DNA from: a virus
Lineage: Duplodnaviria > Caudoviricetes
Virus record (IMG/VR): IMGVR_UViG_3300010365_001248
Coordinates: 1-64,000 of that record
Direction: 5' to 3' (one strand)
Length of the DNA stretch: 64,000 nucleotides
The translations under genes and the position numbers were made by a program. Positions within the stretch are counted from its first letter, which is position 1. Every line of letters begins with the position of its first letter. The notes under the pieces are model-generated. The model saw only the letters and a program-made list of their open reading frames with translations. It was not told the DNA's origin and did no database searches. Positions 32,513 through 56,500 of this stretch are shown piece after piece.

Positions 32513-34528
32513 ATCTAGAACAAGTAAAATCCATAACAAATAGAATTATGGATGTAAATCGAAAGTTAGCAGATTTAGGTGAACCAAAAATTCCTATTAA
32601 TTTTATAGGTATGGCAGGTGTGGGTAAATGTGATTTGCCGTCTTATTGAGTAATTAATAAGATTATCATTGGGCAAAAACGGTGAAGACTGTGATGTTAA
32701 TACCGTGGTAAGTTTTTTCATTACGAAAGGGAAAAAACCACCGTAACGCGTAGAAGGTGAATAAATATAATCCTTCCAAGAGTGTCCGACTCCTAATTTT
32801 TAGGATGAATATGTACGCTGAGCTATAGAGAAAAAGAATCTATAGAAGTATAGATAAAAAGCTATACGATAACAAAACTGAAAACGAGCAGCCTAATGCA
32901 AGTAGCTGAAGAAAGAGGTTGTCATATTGAAACAGTTGTCTTGTCGCAGCTTGAAGAGGTAGGTGATGAACTATAAATGTCACCTAAATTAAAAACTCTG
33001 TGAATCTGGGAAAATCATCGTTATTATATGACAACCCTAATCCAAGCCTTATAGAAATATATTGAAGGATCAACGACTAGAATTAGTAGCCTCAGCAAGT
33101 GGTGTTGGAGGTAAACATTCCACGAGTGCAGAGAATTTTCCTATATATACCAATATTTAGTGGAAAATTAAGAGATAGTCTGAACTATATATAATACATA
33201 AATTATAGAATTAAAGGATAAAGAGCCTTTAAGATAACACAATTGATTACAGGAATGCCAGTTAAATTTTATAAACTTATTGATCCTCAAGGACAAGAAG
33301 TTGAAATGGCAGAAAGTGTTGTTCCTACACTTTTAAATTCAGGATATACTATTTGTCCTAATTGCGAACCAGTTACTTCTTTTGCAAAACCAGCTTGGGT
33401 GCCAGAAGATCGAGATCAAGAGTTTATTTTACTACTTGATGATTTTACCCGTAAAAATTAATTATTAAAATTTAGGAAGCTGCGGGTGTAAAACTCTGTG
33501 AATCTGGGAAACCCTTTATAATAAAATAAAGGCAACCCTAATCCAAGCTTTGTAGAAATACACTGAAGGATCAACGACTAGATTTAGTAATCTGACCAGG
33601 TGGTGCTGAAGATGAAAAATCCACGAGTGCAGAGCAATTATTTAAACATACCAATGTTAAACGATAATTGGTGAGATAGTCTGAACAATACATATATCTA
33701 AAAGTATTGAATTAAAGGATAAAGAGCCTTTAAGATAACAATTTGTGCAATAAAACATTCCTTCAAGCAATTATGCAATTGTTGCAATTTGGTAGTTATG
33801 GTACTTGGAGATTGCCTAAATATACTACAATTCTACTTTCTTCTAATCCAGAAGATGGTATGTACGATGTAACTGAAATTGATCCAGCTTTAAGATCTAG
33901 AATGATGAATTTTGTTGTAGATTTTGATATTAAGTTATGGGCTAAATGGGCTGAATCTAAAAATAAAAATGGTCAACTAATTAATTTTGCTCTTTGGAAT
34001 CAAAAAATGTTCCAAACAGCTAATCATTCTATTAATGCTAGAAACTATTCTATGTTTATAGATGCATTGATGGGAATTAAATTGGACACTAAAAATATGC
34101 CTGAAATTATATTAATGGCACAAGGAATTTTTGGTGAAGAACTTTCTATTGCAGAAGATCTTAGAATGTTTATAGATCAGCAACTAGATAAATTGCCAAC
34201 TCCTAACGATGTCATTACTAAATCTTGGGATGAATTGGAACCAATGCTAACAGATATTCTTTATAAAAATGAAGGTTATCGTTCAGATATTGGTTTCCTA
34301 TTAACCGTTCGTTTTTCTAATTATCTTGAAGAATATTTCAAGAATAACAAAGAAAAGAAAAAAGGTGAAAAAATTGAAAAAAGATTAGTTGAGTTGTTAA
34401 CTGCTAAAAAACCTTTATTGCAAGAAAATGGTTTATTGGAAATTGTTAAAACTCTAATAACTAAGTTTGCAGCAAAATGTCCAACTTTAGTAGCAAATCC
34501 AATTATTGCTTCAAAATTATTAAATTAA
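32509..34528 (+). CDS. MoxR-like AAA+ ATPase, spliced 32509-32625 + 32881-32967 + 33246-33452 + 33746-34528, 397 aa
   Basis: Splicing restores Walker A GMAGVG|KTS, EVGD|ITGMP and Walker B LLLDDFTR|CN; SSNP and DPALRSR are in exon 4. Confidence 0.9.
32626..32880 (+). mobile_element. Group I intron 2 (MoxR Walker A), variant-P7 family
   Basis: GGT|...AACTG|AAA; IGS TTTGCC; P7 GCGTA/TACGC. Confidence 0.9.
32968..33245 (+). mobile_element. Group I intron 3 (MoxR)
   Basis: IGS AATGTCACCT pairs AGGTGAT|ATT; P7 GACTA/TAGTC; terminal G. Confidence 0.9.
33453..33745 (+). mobile_element. Group I intron 4 (MoxR), close relative of intron 3
   Basis: IGS GCGGGT pairs ACCCGT; long blocks identical to intron 3. 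Confidence 0.9.
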
Positions 34529-34530
34529 TT

Positions 34531-34869
34531 ATGAAACAATTAATTGAATTTATTAAAAACTTTTTTAGTACACCTGAAATTAAAGCTGATTATATTTTTC
34601 AAGTAGCTTTACACGGTGAACAATATATTGAGCTAGATGAAAATACTCGTATTAGAAAGTGTATTAAAAAAGCAATTGATTGGTCTTATAAAAAATCTTT
34701 ATGTGGAGAATGTCAATGTCTTGCAAAAATAGATCAAGATTTAATATCTAAAAAAGATATTATTATTGATATTCTTCAAAAAGATTACCATTTTGTAGTA
34801 AAAGATTTATCTGTATTAAATCCAAAATACAGTCATCTACTACTTTTAGATGTAGACCCATCTGAATAA
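34531..34869 (+). CDS. Hypothetical protein
   Basis: Track ORF 34477..34869; ATG 34531 preferred. Confidence 0.65.
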   Translation: MKQLIEFIKNFFSTPEIKADYIFQVALHGEQYIELDENTRIRKCIKKAIDWSYKKSLCGECQCLAKIDQDLISKKDIIIDILQKDYHFVVKDLSVLNPKYSHLLLLDVDPSE

Positions 34870-34946
34870 TATGGTTTATTTAATTATTTATATTTGTTTA
34901 ATTTTTGGTTTGCTTATTTATTTTAAGCAAACCGCTTTAATTTTTA

Positions 34947-35369
34947 ATGAAAACAATGAAAAATTCTAAAAAAATTATTATCTTTAAGCATTCTTCTTTA
35001 ACTGATTTTACAGGTGTTACACGTTATTTTTGTATTTGTGCTAGAGTACAATATGTATTTAAAGGTATTTCAACTATCACTTTTGGTTATTCTATTTGTA
35101 CTCCACCTGATGAATATAATCAGGAAACAGCAGAGAAAATTGCAAGAAAGAAAGTAGAATTTTCAAATAGACTAATTGCTTTTCCAGGTAAAATGATTAA
35201 TGATTCTGTATTAGAACAGATTCTAACTAATGAAATTGATTTCGTTAAAACTCATACCGGAGTTATTTTTAAAACTTATGCTACTGATGAACTTAAATAT
35301 ATTAAGTTACAGAAAGATATAAAAGGAGTTAAAAATGCAATTAATGAACTCAACACCACTAAAGGATAA
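34947..35369 (+). CDS. Hypothetical phage protein
   Basis: GYSICTPPDEYN...IARKK motif. Confidence 0.7.
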   Translation: MKTMKNSKKIIIFKHSSLTDFTGVTRYFCICARVQYVFKGISTITFGYSICTPPDEYNQETAEKIARKKVEFSNRLIAFPGKMINDSVLEQILTNEIDFVKTHTGVIFKTYATDELKYIKLQKDIKGVKNAINELNTTKG

Positions 35370-35517
35370 AAATAATATTATTTATAAATACCCCGAAAGA
35401 ACTTGTAAAAATTGTAAAAAATATCCTTGTTTTAAAGGATTTGATTTTATCAATTTAGATTTTGCTAAATATGGTTGTTTAAATTATGAAGCAGGATCTA
35501 AAAGAGTTTACAATTAA
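35335..35517 (+). CDS. Small Cys-rich protein
   Basis: CKNCKKYPC...GC. Confidence 0.5.
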   Translation: MQLMNSTPLKDKNNIIYKYPERTCKNCKKYPCFKGFDFINLDFAKYGCLNYEAGSKRVYN

Positions 35518-35821
35518 AGCTAAATTATTAGCAGAAAAGAAAGATCTTTTTGGTTATACTCTTTATGTATTTCAAAATCTTGAAAATTATAATATTCATG
35601 AGAAATACATAACTCTCGTTAGATTTCCAAATTGGGAACAAAGCCCTTTTAATATAAATGAAGAGGGCTTTGTTCATTTTAAAATAGTAGAAGCTGGACA
35701 AGATGAATGGTATGATCCTAATTCTAAAAGATTTTATTATTATAATTATACTAATATGATTTTTTTACAGTTTATACCTTTAAAACCAACTACTGGAGAT
35801 CAGATATATATTTTAGATTAA
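35486..35821 (+). CDS. Hypothetical protein
   Basis: ORF track. Confidence 0.7.
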   Translation: MKQDLKEFTIKAKLLAEKKDLFGYTLYVFQNLENYNIHEKYITLVRFPNWEQSPFNINEEGFVHFKIVEAGQDEWYDPNSKRFYYYNYTNMIFLQFIPLKPTTGDQIYILD

Positions 35822-35831
35822 TATAATAAAT

Positions 35832-36686
35832 ATGACAGCAATTGCAGAAGCATTTAAAAAAGCTAATGAATCCAATTTAAACAAGTATGAATGGAGAACC
35901 TCTAAAGATGAGAATGGTGTATATAAAACTTATAAATTAATGGAATGTTCTTTTGAACAACTTCATAGTTTTTATAAACATTGTCAATCTATGCTAGAAA
36001 ATGAGGAATCTACACACTTAGGAAGAAGTGTTATTATGAATATGATTACTTCTCAAATTTCTAAAAGTTATGCTGAACTTGTAGTTAGAATGATGGTTGG
36101 AGTAGGTAAATCTTATAATACTCGATTGGAATTATATCAAGCTTTAAAACATTTTATAGAATTAAATCCTAATGTATTTGTTGATGCTGAAAGTAAAAAG
36201 AATTTTAGTATAGTAAATGCAATTTCTGGACTTGATTCTAAATTCACATCTGCTAATTTAGAAGATGTTATGAATGCTTGCCTATCTTCTTTAGGAAAAA
36301 TTCAATTAACTAAAATTTCTTTAAATTTTATTCTTTCTTTGGGAATTAATTTAAATAAAGAATCTCAAAAAGTAGTAGAATCTTGGATACGAACTAATAT
36401 TAATCTCCCTAAAGACACTAAACTAAAATTTAAAACAAATGGAATTACTAAAGAAGAACTCTATGATATTATCAAAATGAAAAGTGATTCTACTAATTTT
36501 GGTAAGTTTGTATTTGCTAAAGATTACAATGATTTATCATCAAGTCAACTTAATCTTTTAGTAACTAAATTATTACCAGCTCTTTATAATAAATGTGGTT
36601 ATCAGAAATTTCTTTGGGCAAAAAAGATGCAAGAAATTCAAGATGTCGGTTTAGCTAAGGGTTGGAATGTTGCAAATGAAATTTAA
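35832..36686 (+). CDS. Hypothetical replication-module protein
   Basis: ORF track, 284 aa; TAATG-coupled to the helicase. Confidence 0.8.
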   Translation: MTAIAEAFKKANESNLNKYEWRTSKDENGVYKTYKLMECSFEQLHSFYKHCQSMLENEESTHLGRSVIMNMITSQISKSYAELVVRMMVGVGKSYNTRLELYQALKHFIELNPNVFVDAESKKNFSIVNAISGLDSKFTSANLEDVMNACLSSLGKIQLTKISLNFILSLGINLNKESQKVVESWIRTNINLPKDTKLKFKTNGITKEELYDIIKMKSDSTNFGKFVFAKDYNDLSSSQLNLLVTKLLPALYNKCGYQKFLWAKKMQEIQDVGLAKGWNVANEI

Positions 36687-38475
36687 TGACTAGGGATGAA
36701 CGTCAACAACTCGTAATTAAACACTGGATTGCTACAAAAGGAAAAGGAACTTGTGAACTTCCTACTGGGTTGTATTATTTTAAATATATGAAAAAATTTA
36801 TTGATTATAAAAATATAGTAATGAATATTCTAAAGAAAATGGATTAAATTTAATAAAATATCTTTATAATAATAGTTCTATCTACTTAGAAAGAAAATAT
36901 AATTTATTTAAATTTTTTCAAAAAGGCAGCCGTTCTGTAAAGGAATTTACAGAATTATTATCGGGCAATATCGGGGGAAAGCCTATATAGGAAAATCCCG
37001 AGATAAATTTAGAAATTAAAAAATCTAAATCATTGTACAGCGTAGAAGGTGAAACTTATGAAAAATAAATGTAAATATCAAATAAAATTAAAAGACTTTC
37101 CTTATTATTGTTGTAATGCACAAAAGTATTGTCCAGCAATAATATGTCCTTTAAATTATAAAGATTGTGAAGTTTATAAGAATATAATCCTTCCAAGAGT
37201 GTCCGATATCCCAACTGAAATAAGTGGATAAACAGGTACGCGGAGCTTATAAGTAATTATAAGAAGTATGGGATAAAAAGCCCATGCGGTAACAAAACTG
37301 TTGGTAAAACTAGAGTAGCTTTAAAAATAATTGCTTTATTACAAGCAAAAAAGCCTCTAATTTCAATTAAAATACTTGTTCCGACTAATACATTAAAACT
37401 TCAATGGGAAAAAGAAATAGAGGCTTTTAAATTAAAAAAAGATACTATTTCTGTTGAAGTTATGATGGGTTCTTCCCAAAAGCAATCTGAATGTGATTTA
37501 TTAATTTTAGATGAATGTCATCGTTGTCTTTCAGAACATTTATACGCAGCTTTTACTAATATTAAATTTAGATTTGTATTAGGATTAACTGCAACGCTTG
37601 AACGTCTAGATGGTAGACATTTATTAATAGATCAATATGCTCCAATTTGTGATAGTGTTACTATTCAAGAAGCCCTACAAGAAGGGTGGCTTGCTCCATA
37701 TAAAGAATATCTTGTATTAATTGATGTAGATGATATTCAAGTATTTAAAGATTTAAATAAACAATTTACTTCAGTATTTGAATTTTTTAATATGGATTTT
37801 AATTTAGCTATGTCATGTGTAGGTAAAAAAGGTTATTATAATCGTATAAAATTAAGAGATGAAATGCTGCCAAATAATGCTACTCAAAAACAAAAATCAG
37901 ATACTCTTAAACTGATTCAATTAAAAGTAGCTCAATTTATGAGAATTCTTCAAAAAAGAAAATCATTTATAGCAAATCATCCTAAAAAGATTGAAATAGC
38001 TAAACGAATAATAGCAGCACGTTCTAATAAAAAAATTATTACTTTTTGTAAAACAGTTAAAATGGCTGAAGCTATATCAGATAAATATGTTTATACAGGA
38101 GATAAAAGTGTCAAAAAGAATAAACAAATTTTAGAGGAATTTAATAAACAAACTTCTGGAGTATTATCTACAAGTAAAATGGCTCAAGAGGGGCTTGATT
38201 GTCCTGATTTATCTGTAGGTATTTGTTTAGATGTAGATTCAAGTAAAATTAAAGCTAAACAAATATTAGGAAGGGTAATTCGTAAATATAAAGACAAACA
38301 AGCTGAATTTTTTACTATAGTAATTAATAATTGTGTTGAAGTGCAATGGTGGCAAAAAAGTCACACAGGTGCTCCAAATACTATTAAAATTGATGAAGAA
38401 GGTTTAGATCAAGTTTTGAAAGGAGAAACTCCTAGAGAAATTAAAAATCTTCAAAATTATCAATTTAGATGGTGA
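36686..38475 (+). CDS. SF2 (DExH) helicase, spliced 36686-36770 + 37301-38475, 419 aa
   Basis: Splicing restores LPTGFGKT; DECH, GLTAT, EGLD.P and QILGRVIR motifs. Confidence 0.92.
36771..37300 (+). mobile_element. Group I intron 5 (helicase Walker A), variant-P7 family, with HEG remnant and Cys-rich cargo ORF
   Basis: Core shared with intron 2 (TCGGGCAATATCGG, GCGTAGAAGGTGAA, CCTTCCAAGAGTGTCCG, GTACGC); ends AACAAAACTG. Confidence 0.9.
37058..37231 (+). CDS. Intron-encoded 57-aa Cys-rich peptide
   Basis: MKNKCKYQIKLKDFPYYCCNAQKYCPAIICPLNYKDCEVYK... inserted in an intron loop. Confidence 0.45.
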   Translation: MKNKCKYQIKLKDFPYYCCNAQKYCPAIICPLNYKDCEVYKNIILPRVSDIPTEISG

Positions 38476-38538
38476 TTTGAAAAGTTTTAAATTAGTATTA
38501 TGTATTAAACCCTGAAAAGGGTAAAATGCATAAAAAGA

Positions 38539-39174
38539 ATGAAATTAATTCAATTCTTTTTATGTATGTTTATTAATTTAGAAACTGAACTCCTTTGCTA
38601 TAATCAATATAATCTATCTCCTAATGAATTGCTATTTCTTCGAATGTTACTTCTTTGTCAAACAGAAGATCCTGAAGAAAAGAAATATTTTATAACTTAT
38701 ATGCAATTACCTGAAAGTTGTAAAGGTAATATACGTGAAATGTTAGTTATCTTACAGGCTAAAGGTTATATTCTTAAAAATTATAAAATTCCTGAAAAAG
38801 GTCAACAATTTGATCCTGTAAATATTCCTTTTAATCAAAAAATGGTTAATAAACTTTATAAAGCTTCTTATCAAATGGGAAAAGAGCTTTATGATATTTA
38901 TCCATTGAGTTGTGTAGTAAATGAGTGTGAGTATAAATTAAAAAGAATTTCTAATAAATTTGATACTCTAGAAGATGCTTATCGTTATTATGGACAAGCA
39001 ATTCGTAATGATAATATGACTCATGAACAAATCATTAAATTAATTAAATGGGGTAAAGATAATGGGTATCAATTTACTACTTTAGGTGCATTTTTAGCAG
39101 ATCATGATTGGAATAATATATTGTCAATGCAAAAGGAAAGTATATTAAATAATTCTTATATGAAAATGGTGTAA
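38539..39174 (+). CDS. Hypothetical protein preceding DnaB (possible initiator/loader)
   Basis: ORF track; HTH-like N-terminus; function inferred from position only. Confidence 0.7.
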   Translation: MKLIQFFLCMFINLETELLCYNQYNLSPNELLFLRMLLLCQTEDPEEKKYFITYMQLPESCKGNIREMLVILQAKGYILKNYKIPEKGQQFDPVNIPFNQKMVNKLYKASYQMGKELYDIYPLSCVVNECEYKLKRISNKFDTLEDAYRYYGQAIRNDNMTHEQIIKLIKWGKDNGYQFTTLGAFLADHDWNNILSMQKESILNNSYMKMV

Positions 39175-39199
39175 TATGAGAATTTTTAATTAATTTTGT

Positions 39200-40904
39200 A
39201 TGATTTCTGATGAACTTTTAAAAGAAATAGATAGAGGTAGAGAGGGTTTAAATCAAGGTACTACAACTGGTCTAGATAAATTAGATGATTTAACTGGAGG
39301 AAATTTACCTAATAACTTTATTGTAATTTTAGCTCAAAGCGGAGTAGGTAGTGTCTTACATATAAAATGCCGTTCCTATAAAGGAATTTTAGGAATTATT
39401 ACAAACCAAAAACGGGGAACTAAGTAAGAAGAATCCCGTGGTAAATATAGAAATTAAAAAGTCTATATCACCGTAGAGCGTAGGAATTGAACCTATTAAT
39501 ATAGAATAAAATATTCCCAAGAGTGGTTTGCATCCCAACTGAAAGAAGTGGATGAATAGGTACGCCGAGCTGTATTGTAAAATACAGAAGTTAAGATAAA
39601 AAGCTTAACGATAACACAACTGAAATCTTCCTTAATGTTATATTCATATTTTTATAAAGCTTTAAGAACCCATGAAAATGATGATAACTATTTTTGTTAT
39701 TTGTTTAGTTTAGAAATGTCTGCTACAATGGTACTAGGTAAAGTAATTAGTACCTATCTTTATGAGGAATTTAATGTTAGACTTTCTATAAATGATATTT
39801 TTTCAAGAAAAAAAGATTATACTCTTTCTGACGAAAATTATAATTTAGTCCTTAAAGGTATTGAATGGATTAAAAAAATGGAATCTAAATTTATTATATT
39901 TGATAAATCTCTTAATGCAGAAATTCTTTATACTTTATTATTAAAAGAATTAGAAAAAAGAGGATCTTTTCAAGAAACTGAAAATAGAAAAATTTATATT
40001 CCAAATAATCCTAATTTACTTTTTAATGTAATAATAGATCATATTTCTTTAGTTATGCCTTCTAGAGGTAGAGATTTAAAAAGAGAAATAGATTTAATTA
40101 CAGCTTATTTAGTTACATTGAGAAATATGACTAAATTAAGTCCTATTATTGTACAACAAGTAAATAGAGAACAATCTACAATGGAGAGGCGTAAGCAAGG
40201 GTTGTCGGATAGGAGGGTCCCTTGGATTTTAAAAAACAAAAATCATTTTGTATCTTTAATTAAACCTTATATTATTCCATCCATGCTTTATAAAATTCAA
40301 TAAAAATGTCCGAATAAAATTCCGTTAAACGGAGAAACTCCTAACAAGGACAACTCCGTGCTAAATTTTGAAGAAATTCAAATAAATGCCTAAAGACTAG
40401 AGATGATGCTTAACAAGTAAAGTTGAAGCTATAAAATTCTCCACGAAAGCGGGACACTGTTTATAGTAATATTTGAGAAAATATGAAATAAATTAAAGAT
40501 ATAGTCTGATCTATATAGTAATATATAGAATTATAGGATAAAGAGCCTATAAGATAACAAAAATGGTACGCCAATCCGATGCAGCTGATTCTGCAGATCC
40601 TACAAAAGCAGCTGAAGTTGTTATAGCTGTATTTAGTCCTAAAAGAGAAAAATTAAATAACTATGTAGGTTATGATGTTTCTGTATTAGATGATAAATTA
40701 AGAGCTATTCAATTACTCAAAGGAAGATATGGTATTGCAGATGTTGCTATAGCTTGTTGTTTTTGGGGAGATATTAATTATTGGCGTGAATTGCCAAAAG
40801 CTGAACATATTCGAGATTATACTAATTATCTAGAACCAAATTTTATTCCTGAACCTATTGAAACTGAATCTATTAAAATTGATATAAATAATTTTACTTT
40901 ATGA
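39200..40904 (+). CDS. dnaB: DnaB-like replicative helicase, spliced 39200-39349 + 39623-40210 + 40566-40904, 358 aa
   Basis: TTGL..LD, AQSGVG|KS, FSLEM, IIDHISLV, QQVNR, SD|VRQSD and LKGRYG motifs. Confidence 0.9.
39350..39622 (+). mobile_element. Group I intron 6 (DnaB Walker A), variant-P7 family
   Basis: GGT|...CAACTG|AAA; P7 GCGTA/TACGC. Confidence 0.9.
40211..40565 (+). mobile_element. Group I intron 7 (DnaB) with LAGLIDADG C-terminal remnant
   Basis: IGS GTCCGA pairs TCGGAT; P7 GACTA/TAGTC; the 5' loop encodes FVSLIKPYIIPSMLYKI. Confidence 0.88.
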
Positions 40905-41185
40905 CGAATTATGTAAAAGAATTTCAAGAAATTACTAAACAAATGTCTGAAACCTATGAACGAAAAAATACTGACTATGGAAATAGTTTTGCAGTTTCCG
41001 TTCAAAAATACGGTTTGATTGCAGCACTTACTCGTATAAGTGATAAATTTAACCGTATGGAAAATCTTATTTTAACTCGTAATCAACAAGTTAATGATGA
41101 ATCTCTTTCAGACACTTTGTTAGATCTAGCTACCTATTGTATTATGACTACAATAGAACTTAATCATTCTAATAATAAAAATTAA
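40901..41185 (+). CDS. DUF1599/nucleotide-modification-associated domain protein
   Basis: KNTDYGNSF...RISDKFNR...ESLSDTLLDLATY. Confidence 0.85.
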   Translation: MTNYVKEFQEITKQMSETYERKNTDYGNSFAVSVQKYGLIAALTRISDKFNRMENLILTRNQQVNDESLSDTLLDLATYCIMTTIELNHSNNKN

Positions 41186-43357
41186 TGGCAATTACACTAC
41201 CTAAAACAAAACTTCCTGCACTTACTCAAGATCCTAAAAATCTAATTATTTTCGGTTTGCCTAAGGTTACCAGCCGTGCCTAAAAGGGATTTTAGGTATT
41301 ATAACTGAGTAAAAACGGTGGATGCTAAAAATTTTTCTTTTTACTATACAAAAAGTTGGAAAAAAATTATAAACTTGAATAGATTTTATTAAAAATAATT
41401 TATTTTAAGTTTATGAAAATTAATCGTTTTAAATATTCATTAAAAGATATAAAAATATTTGCAGATTATTATAAAAATAATCATACTTTATTAGAAACTG
41501 CAAAATATTTTAATATTAATTATAAAACTATGATAAATAGTTTTATTAGATTAGGGTATTATAAACCTACTAGAAAACAATTAAATAGAAAATATACTAT
41601 TTTGCATGAAGATTATTTTAGTAAAATAGATTCTCATGAAAAAGCTTATTTCTTAGGATTATTAATGTCTGATGGTTATATAGCTACAGATACTTATAGT
41701 AAAATTATGGGAATTACTTTACAATTGCAAGATGAATATATTTTAGAATATTTAAAACAAGCTATTAATCCAAATTCTAAATTACATTATTATAAAAATT
41801 CTGTTAAATTTAGAATTAATAGTACTAAAATATACAATGATTTAAAAACTTTAAATTTTTCTGAATCTAAATCAAATAAAGAATTTCATATACCAAATAT
41901 AAATAAAGAATTTTATAATTCTTTTATAGCTGGTTATTTTGATGGAGATGGATGTATTACTTTAAAAAAATCAGGTTACACAGTATGTTCTATTATATCT
42001 AATTCTAAATTAATATTAGAAGATATTCAAAAAATATTAACTGATAATAATATTTTAACAACTTTAAGAATAGATAGACCTGCTAAAAATAATAGACAAG
42101 CTTTGTATATTTTAGCTATTAATAGATTAAAAGAACAAAAAAAATTTGGAGAATTTATTTATAAAAATACTCCTATTTATTTAATTAGAAAGAAAGAAAA
42201 ATTCATGCAAATACCGTGCTAAATCTATAAATTGCGAAAGGTTATAGATCAGTGTAACGCATAGAGAGTGAATAAATATAATCTCTCCACGAGTACTCGG
42301 TATCTAGAACAGATAAAAATATATGCTGAACTATGAAGAAATTCATAGAAATACAGATAAAAAACTGTATGATAACAAAATTGTGGCAAAACAACTGCAC
42401 TTTCTACACTAGAAAATAATTTAATTATTGATACAGAAAATGGATCAGATTATGTAGAAGCTTTAAAAGTTAAAGCAACTAATATTAAAGAATTGCAAGA
42501 AATTTGTAAAGCAATTAAAGAAGCAGGAAATCCTTATAAATTTATTACAATTGATACTGTTACGGCAATTGAAGAAATGGCAAAACCATTGGCAATCAAA
42601 TATTATAGAGATTCTCCAATGTTTTCTGAAAAATATGCTCAAGTTACTGAACCTCAAGCACTTCCAAATGGAAGCGGGTGGCAATGGTGGCGACAAGCCA
42701 TTGAAAAATTGATAGATATGGTAGCTCAATGTACACCTAATTTAATTATTTGTGGACATGTTAAAGATACTAAACTTGATGAAAATACCTCAGGTTCTGT
42801 AAAAGATCTTGATTTGGCAGGTAAAAAATAGTAAAGTATTTTGCCGTCCTTAAGAGTGATCTTAAGGATCATGACGGGGCAATATCGGTGAAGGCTAAAA
42901 GTTGGATTAAAGATAATATAAATATTAAATTTAAAACAACTCATGTTAATACCGAGATAATTAATGATTTAAAAAGTCATTAACATCGTAACGCATAGAA
43001 AGTGAACCTATATTATAGAATATAATCTTTCCACGAGTGTCCTGCTCTAAATGAAAATTTAGATGAAAATATATGCTGAACTTATAAGAAATTATAAGAA
43101 CTATGAGATAAAAAACTTATAGGGTAACAAAATTGAAAACTAAAAGAGTTCTTTCAGCTAAATCAGACGCTATCGCTTTTTGTTTCAGAGACGATGATGG
43201 AAATTTGTGTTTACAATTTGGTAGTAATGGTGAAATTTTAACAGGAGCTCGTCCTGCTCATCTTGCTGGTAAAACTATTGTAGTTGCTGAAAAGAATGAA
43301 GATGGTACATTTATTTCTCATTGGGAACGTATTTATCCATCTTTGAATGAGAAATGA
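41185..43357 (+). CDS. AAA_24/Sak4-like P-loop ATPase, spliced 41185-41267 + 42384-42822 + 43136-43357, 247 aa
   Basis: Splicing restores FGLPKVGKTT; LIIDTENG, ITIDTVT, IICGH and DLAG|KTK motifs. Confidence 0.9.
41268..42383 (+). mobile_element. Group I intron 8 (ATPase Walker A), variant-P7 family, with intact homing endonuclease
   Basis: IGS GCCT pairs AGGT; P7 GCATA/TATGC; ends GATAACAAAATTG. Confidence 0.92.
41413..42222 (+). CDS. LAGLIDADG homing endonuclease (double motif, N-terminal HTH)
   Basis: AYFLGLLMSDGYI and FIAGYFDGDGCI motifs; located inside intron 8. Confidence 0.93.
   Translation: MKINRFKYSLKDIKIFADYYKNNHTLLETAKYFNINYKTMINSFIRLGYYKPTRKQLNRKYTILHEDYFSKIDSHEKAYFLGLLMSDGYIATDTYSKIMGITLQLQDEYILEYLKQAINPNSKLHYYKNSVKFRINSTKIYNDLKTLNFSESKSNKEFHIPNINKEFYNSFIAGYFDGDGCITLKKSGYTVCSIISNSKLILEDIQKILTDNNILTTLRIDRPAKNNRQALYILAINRLKEQKKFGEFIYKNTPIYLIRKKEKFMQIPC
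42823..43135 (+). mobile_element. Group I intron 9 (ATPase), variant-P7 family
   Basis: GGT|...AATTG|AAA; IGS TTTTGCC; P7 GCATA/TATGC. Confidence 0.9.
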
Positions 43358-44697: not shown

Positions 44698-44699
44698 TA

Positions 44700-46060: not shown

Positions 46061-46088
46061 AAGGTCAGTCTTAAGACTGACCTTTTTT
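46061..46088 (+). terminator. Intrinsic terminator
   Basis: AAGGTCAGTC-TTAA-GACTGACCTT followed by a T-run. Confidence 0.85.
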
Positions 46089-46099
46089 ATTTTATATAA

Positions 46100-46943: not shown

Positions 46944-46998
46944 ATAAACTCATGAAAAAAGAAAAAATTAAAAATAAAATTTTAAAATTTTTAAATAT

Positions 46999-47499
46999 AT
47001 GTTAAATATTGGGCTGGACGCAGATGGAGTAATCGCTGATTTTTTTAATTCATATTATAAATTTTTTAATATGGATTATTCCACACCAATAGATAGTAAT
47101 AAAATGACAAAAGCATGTAATCAAATATTGATTCATGAACATGATTTTTGGGTAGAAATGCCTATTCTATATATGCCTAATTTTACCCCAAAATTAATTT
47201 GTACTAAAAGAAATTTTCCAATTGAATGGACTAAAGAATTTTTAATTAAAAATAATATTCCTATAGTTCCAATTATTCAAATAGAGTATTCTCAAAATAA
47301 ATCTACTTTTCTAAAACATGAAAAAATAGATGTATTTATTGAGGATACTCCTGAAAACTTAGAAGATTTAATTAATCATGGAATTCCTTGTCTTTTACTT
47401 GATGGTGATTTTAATAAGTATTATAATACGCCTTATAGGATATATTCGCTCGAATATCAAGAAATAGAAAAAATGTATAATAAATATTTTAAATTATGA
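46999..47499 (+). CDS. HAD-family 5'(3')-nucleotidase-like protein
   Basis: GLDADGVIADF and DVFIED motifs. Confidence 0.85.
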   Translation: MLNIGLDADGVIADFFNSYYKFFNMDYSTPIDSNKMTKACNQILIHEHDFWVEMPILYMPNFTPKLICTKRNFPIEWTKEFLIKNNIPIVPIIQIEYSQNKSTFLKHEKIDVFIEDTPENLEDLINHGIPCLLLDGDFNKYYNTPYRIYSLEYQEIEKMYNKYFKL

Positions 47500-48194
47500 T
47501 TATTATTCCTGATATACACGGTAGAACTTTTTGGAAAAGTGCTATAGAACAAAAAGAAAAGAATGAGAAAATAATATTTTTAGGGGATTATTTAGATCAT
47601 TATGATTATGAAAAAAATTCAGAAAATGAATTAATTACTCCTGAAAAGGCTATAGAAAATTTTAAAGAAATTTTAAATTATAAAAAGAATAATAATAATG
47701 TAATTCTCTTACAAGGAAATCATGATTATATTCATTATAATTTAAATTCTTTTGATTACAGAAAATATTATAAATATGAAGAAGATATTAATATGCTTTT
47801 TAAAGATAATTTAAAATTATTTTCTATAGCTCATTATGAAGTGTTTAAAAATCAACCTTTTTTATTTACTCATGCTGGAGTAATGCAAAAATGGTTAAAT
47901 AGGGTTAATCAAAAATTTTCAACTATTGAAAATTTAGTACATTGGCTAAATACTAACCCTTGGGCGGCTTTACGAATGTGTGGACCTGATAGAGGAGGTT
48001 TTGATCCTGTAGGTAGTTGTTTATGGGTAACTGTAACTGAATTTGATACTACTAATTATGAATTACCTAATATTTATCAAATTTTTGGACACACACAACT
48101 ACGTTCTGGTTTTATAGGTCCATATCATGCAGATTTGGATTGTCGTAAAGCGTTTAAATTAAATGAAGATACTTTAGAAATTTCTCCTTTATGA
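47496..48194 (+). CDS. Calcineurin-like metallophosphoesterase
   Basis: DIHG, GDYLD, GNHD, THAG and FGHT motifs. Confidence 0.93.
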   Translation: MIIIPDIHGRTFWKSAIEQKEKNEKIIFLGDYLDHYDYEKNSENELITPEKAIENFKEILNYKKNNNNVILLQGNHDYIHYNLNSFDYRKYYKYEEDINMLFKDNLKLFSIAHYEVFKNQPFLFTHAGVMQKWLNRVNQKFSTIENLVHWLNTNPWAALRMCGPDRGGFDPVGSCLWVTVTEFDTTNYELPNIYQIFGHTQLRSGFIGPYHADLDCRKAFKLNEDTLEISPL

Positions 48195-49479
48195 AATTAG
48201 ATGATATTAAATTAATTCCTTTAATGGATACTTTAAGATTACAAAAAATTTCAGATGAAGTTTATTTTTCTGAAAAATATTCATCTTATATTAGTAATTC
48301 TCGTTTAGGATTACTAAATCCATTACAGGATGGGACTCCTGAAAAATTTTTTCAAGGATTTGTAAATCAGGGATATAACCCTTCTTTCGAGTTAGGTAGA
48401 TGAAAATTTTTATAGTATAACTGCCGTCTTTATGAGTAATTATAAAGATTATAACAGGGCAATATCGGTGAATTCTGAAATTGAAAATACCGAGATAACT
48501 TTTGGAATAGCGAAAGGTTCAAAAGCATCGTAGAGCATAGGAAATGAATAAATATAATTTTCCCAAGAGTGTCCTGCTCCTTATATATTAAGGATGAAAA
48601 TATATGCCGAACTATAAAGAATAACAATTTATAGAAATATAGATAAAAAGCTATATGATAACAAAATTGAGTAGAACCCATGAATTAATACTCCAGCCTG
48701 AATACTTTGAATTGGCTCCTGATTTAATGCGACCAAGTGCTAAATTAGGAGCTATTGCGGATAAATTATATCCCTATTTTATTAAAAATACTATAACAGA
48801 TGATCTAGTAACAAAATTTTGTTTGGAAATAGATTATTATGTTAATCAATTAACTCCTAATAGAATTCAAAGTATTAAAGATACTTGTAATGAGTATTGG
48901 AAAAGAAGACAACAGTATGAAGCTTCTCATGAAACATCTAAAATAATTCAATATTGTGATGCTAAATTGTTAAGTACTGTACAAAGTTGTGTTGGTAATT
49001 TAAATAATCATCCACAAGTTAAATCTTTATTACACCCTGAAGGTATACTAGAAACTCCAATATCTGAATGTGAACAAGCCATTCTTTTGGATATAAAAGC
49101 AGAATTACCTAATGGAAAAAATATTATACTAAAACTAAAAGCAAAACTAGATAATTATACTATAGATAAAGAAGCTAATATAGTTACTGTTAATGATGTT
49201 AAAACTTATAGAACTGATTTAATTATGAACTGTGAAGCTTTTCATTATCATCGCGAGATAGGGTTGTATCTCTATTTATTATCAAAATGTTGTGAAAAAT
49301 TTTATAATATGAAAGATTTTACAATGAAAGGTAATTATCTAGGTGTTCAAACTCAATTTCCTTTTAGAGCTTGTGTTTTACCTGTAAAACAACAAGATTT
49401 TAAAAAAGGATTAATTGAAATGGATAAATTATTAAAATATGCTGCTTATTTAATAGGATATAAAAATTATAAATTCTAA
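48191..49479 (+). CDS. PD-(D/E)XK exonuclease-like protein, spliced 48191-48397 + 48670-49479, 338 aa
   Basis: ISNSRL, ELG|SRTHE, EQ...KAKLD...DVKT and Y..EIGLY motifs. Confidence 0.85.
48398..48669 (+). mobile_element. Group I intron 10 (nuclease), variant-P7 family
   Basis: IGS ACTGCC pairs GGT|AGT; P7 GCATA/TATGC. Confidence 0.9.
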
Positions 49480-49813
49480 TGTCACTAACTAGTTCAATTT
49501 TAATTAGTTGCTTTTTAACTATACTATGTATTATTTTAATTGAAAGAAAAAATTAATTTTTCTTTTAAATATATTAAAATTTTTTAATACTTTTGTATTC
49601 TATGAATCCACAAATGGCTTATTCTATTGTACAATTTATCCATAAAAATTTAGAAAAAGATATTCAATTATCAGTAGAAGATACTGCTAGTTTAATTTCT
49701 AAACAATTTAATTTAAAATATGAAGAATCCTATAAAATAGCTTCAGATTTATTTTATTTTGTTAATTCTGATTTTTTAATGAATTTATTTAAATTTAAAT
49801 TAAATATTTTAAA

Positions 49814-50395
49814 ATGAGTAGTTACACTTTTGTTGATTTTTGTTACAAAGAAAAAACTATTAAATCTTTAATAGATTTTTGTACTTCTGCCTCAAGAGAA
49901 CTTGATTTACCAGGTACTGGTACAAATAGAATTAATTATTTTCTTGAACATGATCATAAATTTAAAGATGAAGTTTTTAAATCTATGATTGATAATGGTT
50001 TAGATCCCCTTAAAGATAATAGTATTTATTATATTTGGAGCCATTCTAAATTTAATTTAGTAGAAAGATTTGGAGAAAAAGCTCATTGGGCTCCTTTTAC
50101 AAAAGATTTACTAGATTATGCAATAAATCATTATAAAGAAAATGTTAATGAGGCTAAAAAAGCTATTAAAGATAATTTAGCAATTAACCAATATCTTTCA
50201 AAAATTCAGGCTTCTACAAAGGAAGCTGTAATAGAAATAGTTGAACAAATACAATCTAATGAATCTTCTAATGATTATTGGAAAGATGAATTAAAAATAG
50301 CTAAATATAATCTAAAGCGATTTAAACGTATTAAATTTTGGTATTATTTAACTAAATTTATACCTAAATGTCAACTATTGTATTATCGGGATTAA
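49814..50395 (+). CDS. Hypothetical protein
   Basis: ORF track. Confidence 0.7.
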   Translation: MSSYTFVDFCYKEKTIKSLIDFCTSASRELDLPGTGTNRINYFLEHDHKFKDEVFKSMIDNGLDPLKDNSIYYIWSHSKFNLVERFGEKAHWAPFTKDLLDYAINHYKENVNEAKKAIKDNLAINQYLSKIQASTKEAVIEIVEQIQSNESSNDYWKDELKIAKYNLKRFKRIKFWYYLTKFIPKCQLLYYRD

Positions 50396-50561
50396 AAAAG
50401 AAAATACTTTTAGCAGGCTTTACTTTTATAGTAAGCCTGTTTTTATTTTTAATATATTTATATTATAAATGTGGAAGAATTATTACTTATAAGTTTTTTT
50501 CTTGGATTACTTCTGATAAGTATTTAAGGTTTAAATAAACTAATTAATAAAATACGAAAAA

Positions 50562-51053
50562 ATGGGCACTAATTTTTATAGAGTAAAAAAATATGATTCT
50601 TTTAATAATGAATTAGCTCATTATTATATTTCTGTTGGAAAATTATTAGGAGAAGATTCTTTAGAAAGTTTAATAAATGATTTAAAGAATCCAATTCATA
50701 TTTGTAAAATTTCAGCAGGTTGGCAAGTTTTATTTGATCATAATAATGGTGAATATTATAATCTTTCTAAAAAAAGTTTAAGTAAATTTCTAAAAAAAGA
50801 AGGTTATAATATAATAGATGAATATGGACAAATATATTCTTCAAAAGCTTTTTGGCAATTAGTTTCTTCACATAATAAAAATGAGCATAATAATTTTTAT
50901 GGAGAAATTTATGCTAAAGAAGTAAAAGATACAAACTATTATGCAACTGAATCAGAAAAAGAACGAATTCAAACTTTATGTGGAATTACGCCTATTTATG
51001 CTGATTTTCAATCTAATGGTTTAAGATGGTCAGTAAATACTAATTTTTGTTAA
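50562..51053 (+). CDS. Hypothetical phage protein
   Basis: MGTNFY...HICKISAGW...IIDEYG. Confidence 0.75.
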   Translation: MGTNFYRVKKYDSFNNELAHYYISVGKLLGEDSLESLINDLKNPIHICKISAGWQVLFDHNNGEYYNLSKKSLSKFLKKEGYNIIDEYGQIYSSKAFWQLVSSHNKNEHNNFYGEIYAKEVKDTNYYATESEKERIQTLCGITPIYADFQSNGLRWSVNTNFC

Positions 51054-51359
51054 ATGATTGTATTACACAGTGTTAGTTTAGTAGCTTTAGCTGCAATGTT
51101 AATTTATGTTATTTGCTTTTTCTGTAAATATAGATTTATTCCACAAAGTTTATCTGTAACAGCAGAAAGGTCAGGTAGATATAGATGGTGGCAAGTTACT
51201 ATCTGTACTGTAATGGGTTGGTTAAGTTATTACTTACCAACTTGTTATCCTTTTGCTATTTATGGAGCTTTACCTCTTTTAGGAGCTGCTGGTGTAGCTG
51301 GATTAGCTTTAGCTGGTTATTATTCTTATTCACCTGGAATAGAAACTAAAAGGGAATAG
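51054..51359 (+). CDS. Membrane protein (possibly truncated)
   Basis: Three hydrophobic segments; IPQSLS motif. Confidence 0.6.
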   Translation: MIVLHSVSLVALAAMLIYVICFFCKYRFIPQSLSVTAERSGRYRWWQVTICTVMGWLSYYLPTCYPFAIYGALPLLGAAGVAGLALAGYYSYSPGIETKRE

Positions 51360-51401
51360 TTGGTTATTATATTATAATAAATTTTATAGGAGTTCTATAA
51401 A

Positions 51402-51707
51402 TTGGATATTCGTGATTTGTATATAGGACACATGTCTTCTTCTGAAGATTGGTATCAATTTATTAATTTACTTTGTAATTTAACTAAATATTTATCTGAA
51501 CAAAAGAAGAAGAAACTTTCTTGCTCTGAAGTTTGGGAGGCAATATTGAAAAAATTACCTCCTAAAGATCAATGGGCAATAGATTTAGGTAAATTGGCTG
51601 ATATTATTTATATGCATTCAGATTTATTTGATAATTATGGATTTAAACCATCTGAATATTCAAGCCAATTATTAAAAATCTTTAATACAAAACTTGTACC
51701 ATTTTGA
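51402..51707 (+). CDS. Hypothetical protein
   Basis: ORF track. Confidence 0.6.
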   Translation: MDIRDLYIGHMSSSEDWYQFINLLCNLTKYLSEQKKKKLSCSEVWEAILKKLPPKDQWAIDLGKLADIIYMHSDLFDNYGFKPSEYSSQLLKIFNTKLVPF

Positions 51708-52243
51708 AACATATAGAAACTCAAATAGTGCGAGGTATTACTGTAAAAGACGCAGTTAAAATTTTGCCTTTTAAAGTCATCAAATGTATTGATGCAGGAC
51801 AATTTTTCCGTAAACTAGATAAAGAAGGAATAAAATATTCTAATAAAAAACAAAGAGAATTTGTTTGTGAAGAATTTTTAAAATACCATAAAGCTTGGAA
51901 ACCTGGTTATGTAGGTTATATTACACATAGATGGAGAACACTTTCTTGTAGATGTAAAAGCCAATCTATAGTAACTTATAATAAAAATACCAAGCATAAA
52001 TTAGAAAACGGTTATATTGTCTATAATCAAAATAATCAAATAGTAGAATTTATATACGATATTAAATTAAGTGATTTAATTTCATATTTGAGAAAAAAAT
52101 TAAAAGTAGATACTCTTTCTACTTATAAAGTTATGAAAATTAAAACACGCGATAGAGAAACTCCTACACTTTCATTTTCTAGAAAAAATATAAATGAAGA
52201 TAAATTAGGAGAATACGATATTTTCTATTGTATTGATGATTAA
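51704..52243 (+). CDS. Hypothetical protein
   Basis: ORF track. Confidence 0.65.
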   Translation: MKHIETQIVRGITVKDAVKILPFKVIKCIDAGQFFRKLDKEGIKYSNKKQREFVCEEFLKYHKAWKPGYVGYITHRWRTLSCRCKSQSIVTYNKNTKHKLENGYIVYNQNNQIVEFIYDIKLSDLISYLRKKLKVDTLSTYKVMKIKTRDRETPTLSFSRKNINEDKLGEYDIFYCIDD

Positions 52244-52829
52244 TAGCAAAATTTATCAAACTTTAATTAAACCTTGGATAAAAGAAAAAGATGTAGAACA
52301 ATTATTTACTGATTTATATAATAATTGGAAAAATACTTTAGCTACTAAAGATCGCATTCAAAATAAATTTATTTCAGATGGTATAATTAAAGTTTATAAA
52401 GATGATTCTTTTACAAAACTTGATTATTGGATTTTACAAGAATGTAAACTCAGTACTTTTTTAGGAGATAAAGAAAAAATAGCAGCACAGTTTTTACAAT
52501 CTTTAATTTATATTAGTTTTTCTTTATATGATATTTCTTATGATTTACCTGGAGATAAATGTAAAGGTATTGTTTTAAATTCTAAATATTTTTTTGGATA
52601 CATAGATTTAAAAGATATTAATTTATCTTCTTGGGAACCTTTATGGGATAAATATAGAAAAATTGTAAGACCTTGTGATGCTTTTAAGCATTCTGAATTA
52701 TTAAATTGGGCTAAACAAAATTTAAAATTTACTAAATATTTTGATATAGAACAATTTAAAACTATCGAAGATTCAGAAAATACAGGATTATTAACCAATA
52801 TAAATAATATAAGATATGAAATTGCTTGA
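52233..52829 (+). CDS. Hypothetical protein
   Basis: ORF track. Confidence 0.65.
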   Translation: MMINSKIYQTLIKPWIKEKDVEQLFTDLYNNWKNTLATKDRIQNKFISDGIIKVYKDDSFTKLDYWILQECKLSTFLGDKEKIAAQFLQSLIYISFSLYDISYDLPGDKCKGIVLNSKYFFGYIDLKDINLSSWEPLWDKYRKIVRPCDAFKHSELLNWAKQNLKFTKYFDIEQFKTIEDSENTGLLTNINNIRYEIA

Positions 52830-53514
52830 TTTATATAAGGGTGCTACAGTTATTAACAAAAAATTAACCATTTCTCCTAAAAAATGTATAGCTCCTTTTA
52901 TAAAACAGTTTAAAGATTATAAAACTAAAATTAGTGTATTTGCATTATCTAATCAAGAAATACTTGAAAATAATATAACAAAGAAAATATATTCAGATGT
53001 ATTAATACAAGTAATTTTACCTAATATATCTTTAGCTTCTTATAAAATGATGATATGTTTTACATATAAAATAGGTTTTGGAGTAAAAATTTATAAATGT
53101 TGGTATGATATTGAAAATCAATCATATTTAGTAAATACTTCTAAAGATATTTATATGTATAATTTTGATAATATTGACTATTCTAAAGTTGCTACGTTAA
53201 TTAATGAAGATATACCTATTATTGATGAATCTAAATCTTTTAATACAGAAGATTTAAAGAAAATAATGGGTAGTTGGTCAATAGATTGTTCTCAATTAAC
53301 TTTAGCTATTAGTAAAGATAAAGTTAAATTAGCCGAAAATCTTCCTATTCGATGTTTTAAAAGAATTCAAAAACATTATTTACTTGATACTATTTCTATT
53401 AAAGAAATTAGACAAGATTTTAGTTTTCTTTTAATTGAAGATATGAAGAAAGATTTATATAATATATATGAGAAAAGTTTTCTCATCAATACTTTATTAA
53501 ATGAAAATTGTTAA
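52816..53514 (+). CDS. Hypothetical protein (DUF932-like)
   Basis: ORF track; family guess is weak. Confidence 0.6.
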   Translation: MKLLDLYKGATVINKKLTISPKKCIAPFIKQFKDYKTKISVFALSNQEILENNITKKIYSDVLIQVILPNISLASYKMMICFTYKIGFGVKIYKCWYDIENQSYLVNTSKDIYMYNFDNIDYSKVATLINEDIPIIDESKSFNTEDLKKIMGSWSIDCSQLTLAISKDKVKLAENLPIRCFKRIQKHYLLDTISIKEIRQDFSFLLIEDMKKDLYNIYEKSFLINTLLNENC

Positions 53515-56500
53515 AACTGTTATAAATAAAAAGAGAGAAGAAAAAATATTTGATATAAATAAAATTCATATAGCTATTCGTAAAAGTGCTGATAGAATTT
53601 TAGTTACTCTAAATGATTCAGATTGTATTAAAATTTCAGATGAAGTTATTAATATGATTGATACTGAAAAAATAGAAGTTTCTAAATTGCATAATATAGT
53701 TGAACAAGCTCTTGAAAAAACTGGTTTTAATAAAGTAGCAGATTCTTATAGACAATATCGAAATTATAAATTAGATCTCCAAAAAACAAAAGAAACGGCT
53801 AATAATGATATTCAAGCTACTTTTATGAGTATTATTAATGCTGTTAATAATGATATTACTAGAGAAAATGCAAATATGAATTCAGATTCTCCTGCAGGTA
53901 TGATGATGAAATTTGCAAGTGAATCAACTAAACCTTTTGTAAGTAAATATCTTTTGTCTGAAGATGTTTTACTTGCAGAATCTTTAAATTATTTACATAT
54001 TCATGATAAAGATTACTATCCAACTAAAAGTTTGACTTGTATTCAGCACCCTTTAGATAGAATTCTTGAAAAAGGATTTAAAGCGGGGCATGGAGAAGCT
54101 AGAGGAGCTAAAAGAATTGAAACTGCTAGTATTTTAGCAGCTATTTCAATGGAAACTGTACAAAATGAAATGCATAAATAATACTGTGCATACTATTAGA
54201 AATAATAGGTAAAAATAAAAATAACGTGAACTTGTTTATCAGCAAGGTGTGAAAGAAACCTTTAGGGTTATATAGGAAATGATATATTTATTCTTTTGCT
54301 AACAGGGGAAGACACGTCCAAGTTTATCCTGTGCCAAGTACTAGTTACCATAAAAGTATTAATAAAAACTAGTAACTAGTAAAGGTCAAGAGACTATCGA
54401 AAAGTTATATTTTGCATAAGAAAATAAACACTTAGTAGAGTAGGGTAGAGATTGATACTATCCGAAGTGCGTTACAACTTAACATTTGAAGGTGAAGTTG
54501 ATGATATAGTCCGTCCTAAATTTATATTTAGGAAGGGTGGACAAGCAATTCCAGCTTTTGATTTTTATATGGCACCTTATGTAAGAAAAACATTTAATGA
54601 AGAAATTCTCAAAATTAAAAATTTTATGTTTGATTCAAATATTAATTGGGAGAATTTAATGAATATTAAATTGAAAGATTATATAAAGAAGCCTTTAACT
54701 GATTGTAAAGATTTGTCAGAAAAAATCATACAACAAGCTATAAATAATACAGTAGATAGAGTTCATCAAGCTATGGAATCTTTTATTCATAATATGAATT
54801 CTATTCATTCTAGAGGAGGTAAAATATGATTGCCTCCCAAATATAGTAATATATTTGTAAAAAATCCCGTAAAATCGGTGAAGTCTAAAAATATTAGGAT
54901 TCCAATAATATTCAAGATAATACCGAGGTAAGTTCTAAGATTGCGAAAGGCTTGGAAACACCGTAGAGCATAGTGGGTGAATAAATATAATCCCGCCAAG
55001 AGTATGGGACCCCAAATATATTTGGGTGAAAATGTATGCCGAACTATAAAGAAATTTATAGAAATAAAGGATAAAAAACCTTTATGATAACAAAATTGAA
55101 TCAAGTTGTATTTAGTAGTATTAATTATGGTACTGATACTTCAGCTGAAGGTAGGTGTGTAATTAGAGAACTATTAATATCTACGGAACAAGGAGTAGGA
55201 AATAATGCTACAGCTATTTTTCCGATACAAATTTGGAAAACAAAAGAAGGTGTATCAATATTACCTACTGATCCTAATTATGATTTATATAAATTCGCTT
55301 GTAAAGTTAGTGCACGCAGATTTTTTCCAAATTTTTTAAATCTAGATGCTACTTTTAACAAAGATGATGCTTGGGATATTAATGATCCTAAACGTTATGA
55401 ACATGAAGTAGCTGCAATGGGTAAGTGAAAATGCAGCCCATTTAAAACCTTTTGAACCGTGCTAACGGGTGTGGAATAAACGATTTAGTTTAGATTAATA
55501 GTCTATTAATTATTCTGCTAACTGCTAGGTCCAATAATAGCAGTTCTAAAATTATTGGATGAGGCAGTGCCAAATCGCAAAATGCGAAAGTGTGAATCGA
55601 CTATCCCTGATGAGTGTAAGGGAGTAGAATTGGAGATAAGCACCAATTCGAAGCGGAAGGCTCTAGAAATAGAGAACATATAGTCAGTACTAATGGTGAC
55701 ATTAGATTAATACGTGTAGAACCAGAGTTTATGAAAATGCTTTTGGACCTAAAACTTCAATAGGTAGAGGTAATATTAGTTTTTCTACTATGAATTTAGT
55801 TAAATTAGCTATTGAGGTTTCAATTCAAGATGAATTTTTATATAAAGAAAATAATAATTGGAAATTTAATGAAAATAAAAATTCAATTGAAGATAAAAAT
55901 AGAAGGCTAGAAGCATTTTTAATTAAATTATCAAATTTAGTAACTATTACTACTAAACAATTACATCAACGTTTTGAATTTCAAAAAACTGCTTTGAAAA
56001 AACAATTTCCTTTATTAATGCAAGGACTTTGGAATGGTTCTGAATCTTTAAAAGATACAGATACTATCGAATCAGTTATTAATTCAGGAACCCTCGGTGT
56101 GGGCTTTATAGGTTTGGCTGAAACTTTGGTAGCTTTAACTGGAAAACATCATGGAGAATCTGAAGAAAGTCAAAAGTTTGGTTTAACTATAATTAAAAGT
56201 ATTAAAGATCAATGCGTTGAAGCTAGAGAAAAATATAAGCATAATTATGCTTGTTTAGCTACTCCAGCTGAAGGTTTATCTGGTAAATTTACTAAAATAG
56301 ATAAAAAAGAATTTGGAATTATTCCTGGAGTTATTGACAAAGAATATTATACTAATTCTAATCATGTTCCTGTAGAATATAAATGTAGTATTGAGCACAA
56401 ATTTAAAATCGAAGGACCTTATCATGAATTAATTACAGCTGGTCACATCGGATATTGTGAGATTGATGGAGATTTAACTAAAAATCCAGAAGCTATTATG

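Follow-up and report, generated by a model that had tools for sequence, protein, structure and literature searches.

The 64,000-nucleotide stretch analyzed here (the window) opens the IMG/VR virus record IMGVR_UViG_3300010365_001248 (163.9 kb, 94% complete, G+C content about 26%), covering its first 64 kb. Seven of its sixteen introns, namely i2, i5, i6, i8, i9, i10 and i12 (i-numbers denote introns of the window), carry a non-canonical P7 helix and belong to one family of group I introns. A preliminary description of this DNA had presented them as a ribozyme lineage transposing within the genome. Our analysis suggests that they are probably ordinary mobile elements, members of a group I intron family that is widespread among phages and associated with endonucleases, and that this phage gathered them one by one. 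An intragenomic transposing ribozyme system is not supported. The family thus represents no new kind of system, but it adds modest new detail to the knowledge of mobile introns.

All seven introns lie on the + strand between positions 32626 and 55098, which are the exact start of i2 and the exact end of i12. Splice sites were read from the sequence letters, and matches in Pfam and PHROGs served to identify the host genes. Intron i2 (32626-32880, 255 nt, no open reading frame (ORF)) interrupts an ATPase gene, with an exon matching phrog_1297, inside Walker A (GVG|KT), and its excision restores GMAGVGKTS. Intron i5 (36771-37300, 530 nt) is located in motif I of an SF2 helicase gene, PTG(F)GKT (ACT GGG T|TT GGT AAA ACT). 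Intron i6 (39350-39622, 273 nt, no ORF) splits Walker A GVG|KS of a DnaB-like helicase gene with a weak DnaB_C match. An AAA_24 ATPase gene holds both i8 (41268-42383, 1116 nt), in the Walker A region LPK(V)GKT (AAG GT|T GGC AAA ACA), and, further downstream, i9 (42823-43135, 313 nt, no ORF), inserted in a Walker A look-alike, LAG|KTKR (GGT|AAAACT). Intron i10 (48398-48669, 272 nt, no ORF) lies in gene 48191-49479 at FELG|SRTHELIL, and i12 (54821-55098, 278 nt, no ORF) in NrdD at SRGG|NQVVF, between exons matching NRDD and phrog_487. Reading of the junctions bore out the earlier claim that all seven follow GGT and are spread over six genes.

On structural grounds, the seven elements are genuine group I introns, and we infer that they splice themselves. 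Their helix order, P1-P2-P3-P4-P5-P6/6a-P7-P7.1-P3'-P8-P7'-P9-P9.1, is that of the canonical-P7 introns of the same genome. The structure written out on a full-length alignment of 27 sequences comprised 58 pairs in 12 helices, with P2, P3, P4, P5, P6, P6a, P7, P7.1, P8, P9 and P9.1 set out and P3 entered as a pseudoknot. In this alignment 91% of cells were paired, compared to 66% in shuffles and 34-45% with slid partners. The paired fraction reached 100% in P3 (4/4 pairs covarying), P7 and P7.1 (5 bp, 4 of them covarying), 99% in P4 and 97% in P6. RNAalifold applied to 45 family sequences recovered P7, P7.1, P8, P9 and P9.1, and 20 of the 25 pairs showed compensatory changes. Extra P7.1/P7.2 helices between P7 and P3', together with P9.1, are characteristic of subgroup IA2. 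In the present family P9.1 is supported by covariation, short forms have no separate P7.2, and some members carry an inserted hairpin in L7.1. The terminal U of the 5' exon forms a U.G wobble with the P1 guide in all seven introns (GGU:GCC). All seven end in ..AAYTG with an intron-terminal G (omega G), after which the downstream exon restores the reading frame, and intron removal restores the Walker A motifs and the continuity of NrdD.

A scan for P7 strands confirmed the variant helix in all seven introns: GCGUA/UACGC (GCGTA/TACGC in DNA letters) in i2, i5 and i6, and GCAUA/UAUGC (GCATA/TATGC) in i8, i9, i10 and i12. The third pair therefore covaries, being G-C in three introns and A-U in four. 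Across the 27 aligned sequences, the closing pair of P7 also covaries (A-U in 13, G-C in 11, C-G in 3) and is followed by one bulged base, an invariant G-C (27/27) that is the guanosine-binding pair, an invariant C-G, an R-Y pair (A-U in 14, G-C in 13), U-A and A-U. This layout is the usual geometry of the guanosine pocket. In Tetrahymena, A265-U310 and C266-G309 form stacking triples (PMC9943679). The equivalents of both pairs are replaced in the variant P7, so the change does lie beside the guanosine-binding pair, as had been proposed.

Other features that the preliminary description assigned to the two intron groups held only in part. The canonical GACTA/TAGTC, attributed to all nine remaining introns, was found in at least eight. 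In the NrdD intron at 54182-54451 the 5' strand GACTA is present, whereas a clear matching TAGTC was not found; its core may be different or degenerate. Among the sequence modules said to be shared by the seven, AATATAAT..CCMMGAGT gave 6 matches versus 0.03 expected. The modules CCACGAGT and GATAAAG..GATAACA are present also in the canonical-P7 introns i3, i4 and i7 and hence are not exclusive to the seven. The view that the seven are kin by descent, with a derived P7 in common, stands.

The standard Rfam model, RF00028, found none of the seven introns, whether at the gathering threshold or with E relaxed to 10, the search of a 286-nt stretch included, but does match their canonical-P7 sisters (79.5, 39.2 and 38.6 bits). 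Because the structural evidence for an intron is strong, we put this miss down to a blind spot in RF00028. R1, a covariance model that we derived from the variant family, in turn scored five canonical-P7 introns of the genome at 41-70 bits, and the canonical intron with 79.5 bits in RF00028 matches introns of 131 Staphylococcus phage records. The variant family is thus a sister of a classical phage intron group. In the whole genome R1 identified nine copies of the variant family at 93 bits or above (range 93-139, with i2 at 133.9): the seven of the window and two more in the large terminase gene (TerL), on the - strand at record positions 150220-151201, outside the window. In the literature searched, which did not extend to most subscription papers, neither this P7 variant nor a group I intron located in a P-loop was found described.

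The family is a pan-phage lineage that extends well beyond this genome. When IMG/VR was scanned for its signature, with the 5' strand of P7 fixed and the 3' strand left free, at least 113 stretches emerged, 106 of which were confirmed by matches spanning the length of the family profile. The 111 distinct members among the matches listed comprised 64 with GCAUA/UAUGC, 43 with GCGUA/UACGC and four with other combinations, all of them Watson-Crick, and the third P7 pair changed state at least 24 times on the family tree. In BLAST searches 45-65 deposited records, from crAss-like, Bacillus, Staphylococcus, Clostridioides and Lak phages, proved to contain the family, with the variant P7 in all records inspected. 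In crAss-like phage cr6_1 a family intron interrupts an ATPase gene at GTG|KT, and its intron endonuclease is annotated; Bacillus phage PJN02 carries one in a RecD-like helicase gene (GMG|KS), and a Staphylococcus phage one in TerL. The idea of an undescribed system is not supported in view of these records, some of which already carry an annotated intron endonuclease. The tape-measure gene of Clostridium phage phiCD211 holds two adjoining group I introns (LN681537.2 28587-29156; L120:1501-2070, where L-numbers label other compared phage loci). The depositors annotated only the canonical-P7 intron (Intron_gpI, from Rfam), and the variant-P7 intron just upstream is unannotated, which illustrates the blind spot of Rfam. 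Spread to unrelated genes, proposed for this genome, was seen family-wide as colonization of many unrelated genes; homing to one site therefore cannot be the entire history.

The phylogeny of the copies bears directly on the mode of spread. The preliminary description suggested that the lineage multiplied inside this genome, by a route that would take it through reverse splicing into GGU of transcripts, reverse transcription and recombination. We consider this improbable. The phage's own copies are 75-82% identical to one another, no closer than to copies in unrelated phages, and their nearest neighbors are mostly foreign. On the main tree (240-column alignment, 77 members), which replaced a tree of the 3' half (139 columns, 111 rows), i5 grouped with helicase introns of L114, L001 and L042, one of these three phages carrying a full LAGLIDADG ORF. 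Intron i6 grouped with L025, L064, L068 and the DnaB intron of MT835492, its nearest cores being L025 (an AAA_24 P-loop intron) and L064. Intron i8 grouped with L084 and L071, i12 with L088 and L037, and the TerL copy with L056, while the placement of i2, i9 and i10 was not resolved on this tree. The eight own copies needed eight label changes, the maximum possible. A clade of the seven was rejected by the approximately unbiased (AU) test (p = 0.017, log-likelihood difference 114), as was a clade of five own copies (p = 0.0275); on the 3'-half tree the test for the seven gave p = 0.124, that tree being too weak. The own copies are scattered over several supported clades that also hold foreign introns, and the term "intragenomic" is not supported. 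Nor is reverse splicing, as a search of the genome for an RVT_1 (reverse transcriptase) domain gave no match.

One feature that favors reverse splicing is the GGT rule itself. Eight of the nine genome copies follow GGT, although this triplet accounts for just 2.7% of the window's NNT, and the invariant 3-nt guide GCC would suit any GGU. The exception, one of the two TerL copies, stands against it: whereas the other copy follows GGT (LLIGG|TGGDKG), this one follows CGAT (KARS(I)GFSE) and has the guide GUCG. The rule can also be explained in another way. The exon part of P1 consists of GGU:GCC only, and the rest of the helix is supplied by the intron (in i12, P1 is 6 bp, GGAGGU/GCCUCC). With such a minimal guide any GGT site permits splicing, so that no RNA-level integration is needed to account for the rule. 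The guides had been described as re-tuned to each site. The intron-side half of P1 does differ from copy to copy, but every one of the seven has the same GCC for binding the exon, and among 44 members the guide was GCC in most and GGC or GUC in a few. Two canonical-P7 introns, at about 30978 (guide GCCUCC) and 63703 (guide GCCC), follow GGT too, so that introns outside the variant family share the preference.

The proposed preference for glycine codons of P-loops was partly sustained. Both GGT and P-loops are favored family-wide, but GGT is a glycine codon in only five of the seven introns, whereas in i5 and i8 it straddles a codon boundary. The Walker A motif is split between its G and K by i2 and i6, and i5 and i8 are inserted four to five bases earlier in it. 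Among 101 members with a called 3' end, 27 were associated with GK[ST], and the protein contexts numbered a dozen or more: exon 2 starts with K[ST] in 18, and 9 lie just before GK[ST].

Comparison of filled and empty sites in other phages points to separate acquisition. For i5, i6, i8, i10 and i12, other phages have family introns at the identical site or at least in the same motif. The helicase gene holds family introns in MT835492, L114 and L042 and is empty in L025 and MT836666. The DnaB site of i6 is filled in MT835492 and empty in four others. The AAA_24 site of i8 is filled at the identical position in L060, with an ORF in the same loop. The i10 site is filled in L110 and empty in five phages, among them L033, L001, L060 and L063, and the NrdD site of i12 is filled in L079 and L102. 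Presence/absence polymorphism was thus seen at the helicase, DnaB, AAA_24, i10-gene and NrdD sites. The TerL sites are also filled in several other phages. The pattern by which the preliminary description would have recognized independent homing was largely found: i5 and i8 have counterparts with endonuclease genes, and the sites of i6, i10 and i12 hold family introns in other phages.

These data also bear on whether the introns could be old residents, inherited vertically from an ancestor of the phage group, lost in relatives and no longer mobile. The divergence of the copies, six of seven without an endonuclease, and the filling of the same sites in relatives whose host proteins are 40-60% identical would fit such a history. 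We nevertheless regard it as unlikely, since occupancy is patchy and does not track relatedness: L060, the closest relative, has only the i8 site in common, and its i6, i9 and i10 sites are empty. Family members occur, moreover, in unrelated phages of Firmicutes and cyanobacteria. Intron i6 is also nearer to an AAA_24 intron (78%, L025) than to its counterpart at the DnaB site (66%, MT835492), indicating that moves between P-loops of different genes have occurred.

Endonuclease genes accompany the family and argue for a DNA route. The P5 loop of i8 holds an intact, double-motif LAGLIDADG homing endonuclease gene (41413-42222, + strand, 269 aa; LAGLIDADG_3, E = 1e-15), whose product shows 45% amino acid identity to that of the ORF at the identical site in L060. 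As had been noted, this gene is single; it gives the only LAGLIDADG_3 match across the whole 164-kb record. About 40 fetched family loci encode a homologue adjoining the core. The ORF lies in the P1 loop in many of the family loci, with a conserved C-terminus (..IYLxRKY..) reaching the guide, and in the P5 loop in others. The long L1 of i5 (36771-36925, 155 nt) holds the C-terminal remnant of a LAGLIDADG gene, which aligns at 77% with the matching end part of an intact ORF in MT835492. An intact endonuclease is absent from 15 of the 16 window introns, and five of the seven are without any LAGLIDADG ORF or remnant. Same-site relatives with endonuclease genes and the remnant in i5 run counter to the earlier statement that homing does not explain the distribution, as well as to reverse splicing. 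In L060, a related 179-kb phage, the LAGLIDADG ORF at the i8-equivalent site (L060:12214-13005, - strand) contains in-frame TAA and TGA, reflecting either decay or stop-codon recoding.

A single intact enzyme could in principle mobilize the six introns without an intact endonuclease gene in trans, cutting all their targets. Its being the only LAGLIDADG_3 gene in the record is in keeping with this, as are the likeness of the i8 and i5 sites (CCTAAGGT|TGGCAAAAC versus CCTACTGGGT|TTGGTAAAAC) and the GGT|AAAWC common to several sites. However, the i10 and i12 sites match the i8 site in GGT only, and LAGLIDADG enzymes recognize about 14-22 bp. The introns without ORFs have foreign relatives of their own, several of which encode their own ORFs in a different loop (L1), and i5 carries the remnant of its own endonuclease. 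We therefore judge mobilization by the i8 enzyme to be very unlikely.

Taken together, the evidence is best explained by introns that would have entered the phage separately, through endonuclease-driven homing from co-infecting relatives into cognate sites. Occasional ectopic moves would have taken place between look-alike GGT sites, chiefly Walker A coding DNA (GGN AAA WCN). Most endonuclease genes would have been lost later, leaving the remnant in i5 and the one intact gene in i8. A more specific version, in which the variant lineage is a generalist intron whose GCC:GGU guide and Walker A-tolerant LAGLIDADG enzyme let it hop from one P-loop to another across unrelated NTPases, and also into look-alikes like that of i9, is put forward only tentatively.

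Several observations weigh against separate acquisition by homing. The genome holds nine copies (at least 93 bits), versus 1-4 (at least 85 bits) in five related complete genomes of 167-181 kb, so that some spread within this phage's lineage is possible. For i2 the sequence of highest identity is i10, and the reverse also holds (78%), and i2, i10 and i12 were loosely grouped on a 27-row tree. The i5 intron lies 5 nt upstream of the position occupied in the helicase genes of L001 and L114, and in the AAA_24 gene L025 carries a different family member with an L1 ORF 4 nt downstream of the i8 position, each after another GGT. Such displacements are not predicted by precise homing and could reflect guide-directed (RNA-level) integration or sloppy repair. 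The excess of copies, the loose grouping and the displacements are also what speaks for reverse splicing. The i8 core is nearest to that of L084, in a different gene, whereas its endonuclease and site match L060; core and endonuclease seem to differ in their histories. No filled same-site relative of i9 was found among the compared phages, its site being empty in L060 (GTAGGT|AAAACT) and L110, and none was found for i2, whose exons were too short for the search.

Intron i5 has further features of its own. A 60-aa ORF in its P7.1 loop (37049-37231) is Cys-rich, with seven Cys, and gave no family match in Pfam or PHROGs; it could be either a relic or the gene of a small peptide carried by the intron. 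An IStron-like reading (intron plus transposase) was dropped, as this ORF and the LAGLIDADG gene are the sole ORFs inside the seven introns. The start of i5 (36771-36821) contains a TGTATTATTTTAA..ATATG-like stretch that recurs at 49527-49577 and 30073-30117 with 71-76% identity. Both recurrences are intergenic and directly upstream of ORFs, and the stretch may be a promoter or translation-start module. Elsewhere in the window, seven tRNA genes are clustered at 10781-12333 on the + strand. A megablast search of 12 kb against phage sequences gave two short matches only.

The closest known structures are the introns of Staphylococcus myophages (Twort/K-like), which we take to be subgroup IA2. 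The variant family resembles them in helix order, including P7.1 between P7 and P3', in the CCAMGAGU joiner, in P9/P9.1 and in the 3' tail ..GAUAACAnAAyUG. It differs in having P7 GCRUA/UAYGC instead of GACUA/UAGUC, in being missed by RF00028 and in its associated endonuclease, which is of the LAGLIDADG type. For group I introns of rDNA, reverse splicing has been proposed as a route of ectopic transposition. The likeness is that a short guide-target pairing would allow many sites and that related introns occur at heterologous sites; in contrast, no reverse transcriptase was found here, and endonuclease genes and remnants indicate a DNA route.

The host phage itself may belong with the "Zeta" crAss-like phages, which are distantly crAss-like, have genomes of 145-192 kb and carry up to 14 introns counted via endonuclease domains (Yutin et al. 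2021, PMC7886860). The 164-kb record, its intron load and the distant matches of its SF2 helicase in crAss-like phages fit this group. As that survey used protein domains, it would miss the 15 of 16 window introns that have no intact endonuclease. Endonuclease-bearing inteins recur in Walker A of non-orthologous NTPases, among them DnaB, MCM and RFC (Novikova et al. 2016, PMC4760082). The family introns at or just before GK[ST] parallel them. Inteins, however, splice at the protein level, whereas here an RNA intron with a 3-nt guide adds the GGU requirement.

For mobile elements, the family thus provides an intron P-loop hot spot that parallels that of inteins. For RNA biology, it offers more than 100 natural variants of the two pairs flanking the guanosine-binding pair, always Watson-Crick. 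For annotation, it escapes the standard Rfam model and, where it has no ORF, protein-domain surveys as well, while splitting essential phage genes (ATPases, helicases, NrdD and TerL) into seemingly broken fragments. A covariance model like R1 would mend gene calls in crAss-like and other gut phages. If the lineage is indeed a generalist, the family could be a large share of gut-phage introns that has gone uncounted because RF00028 misses it.

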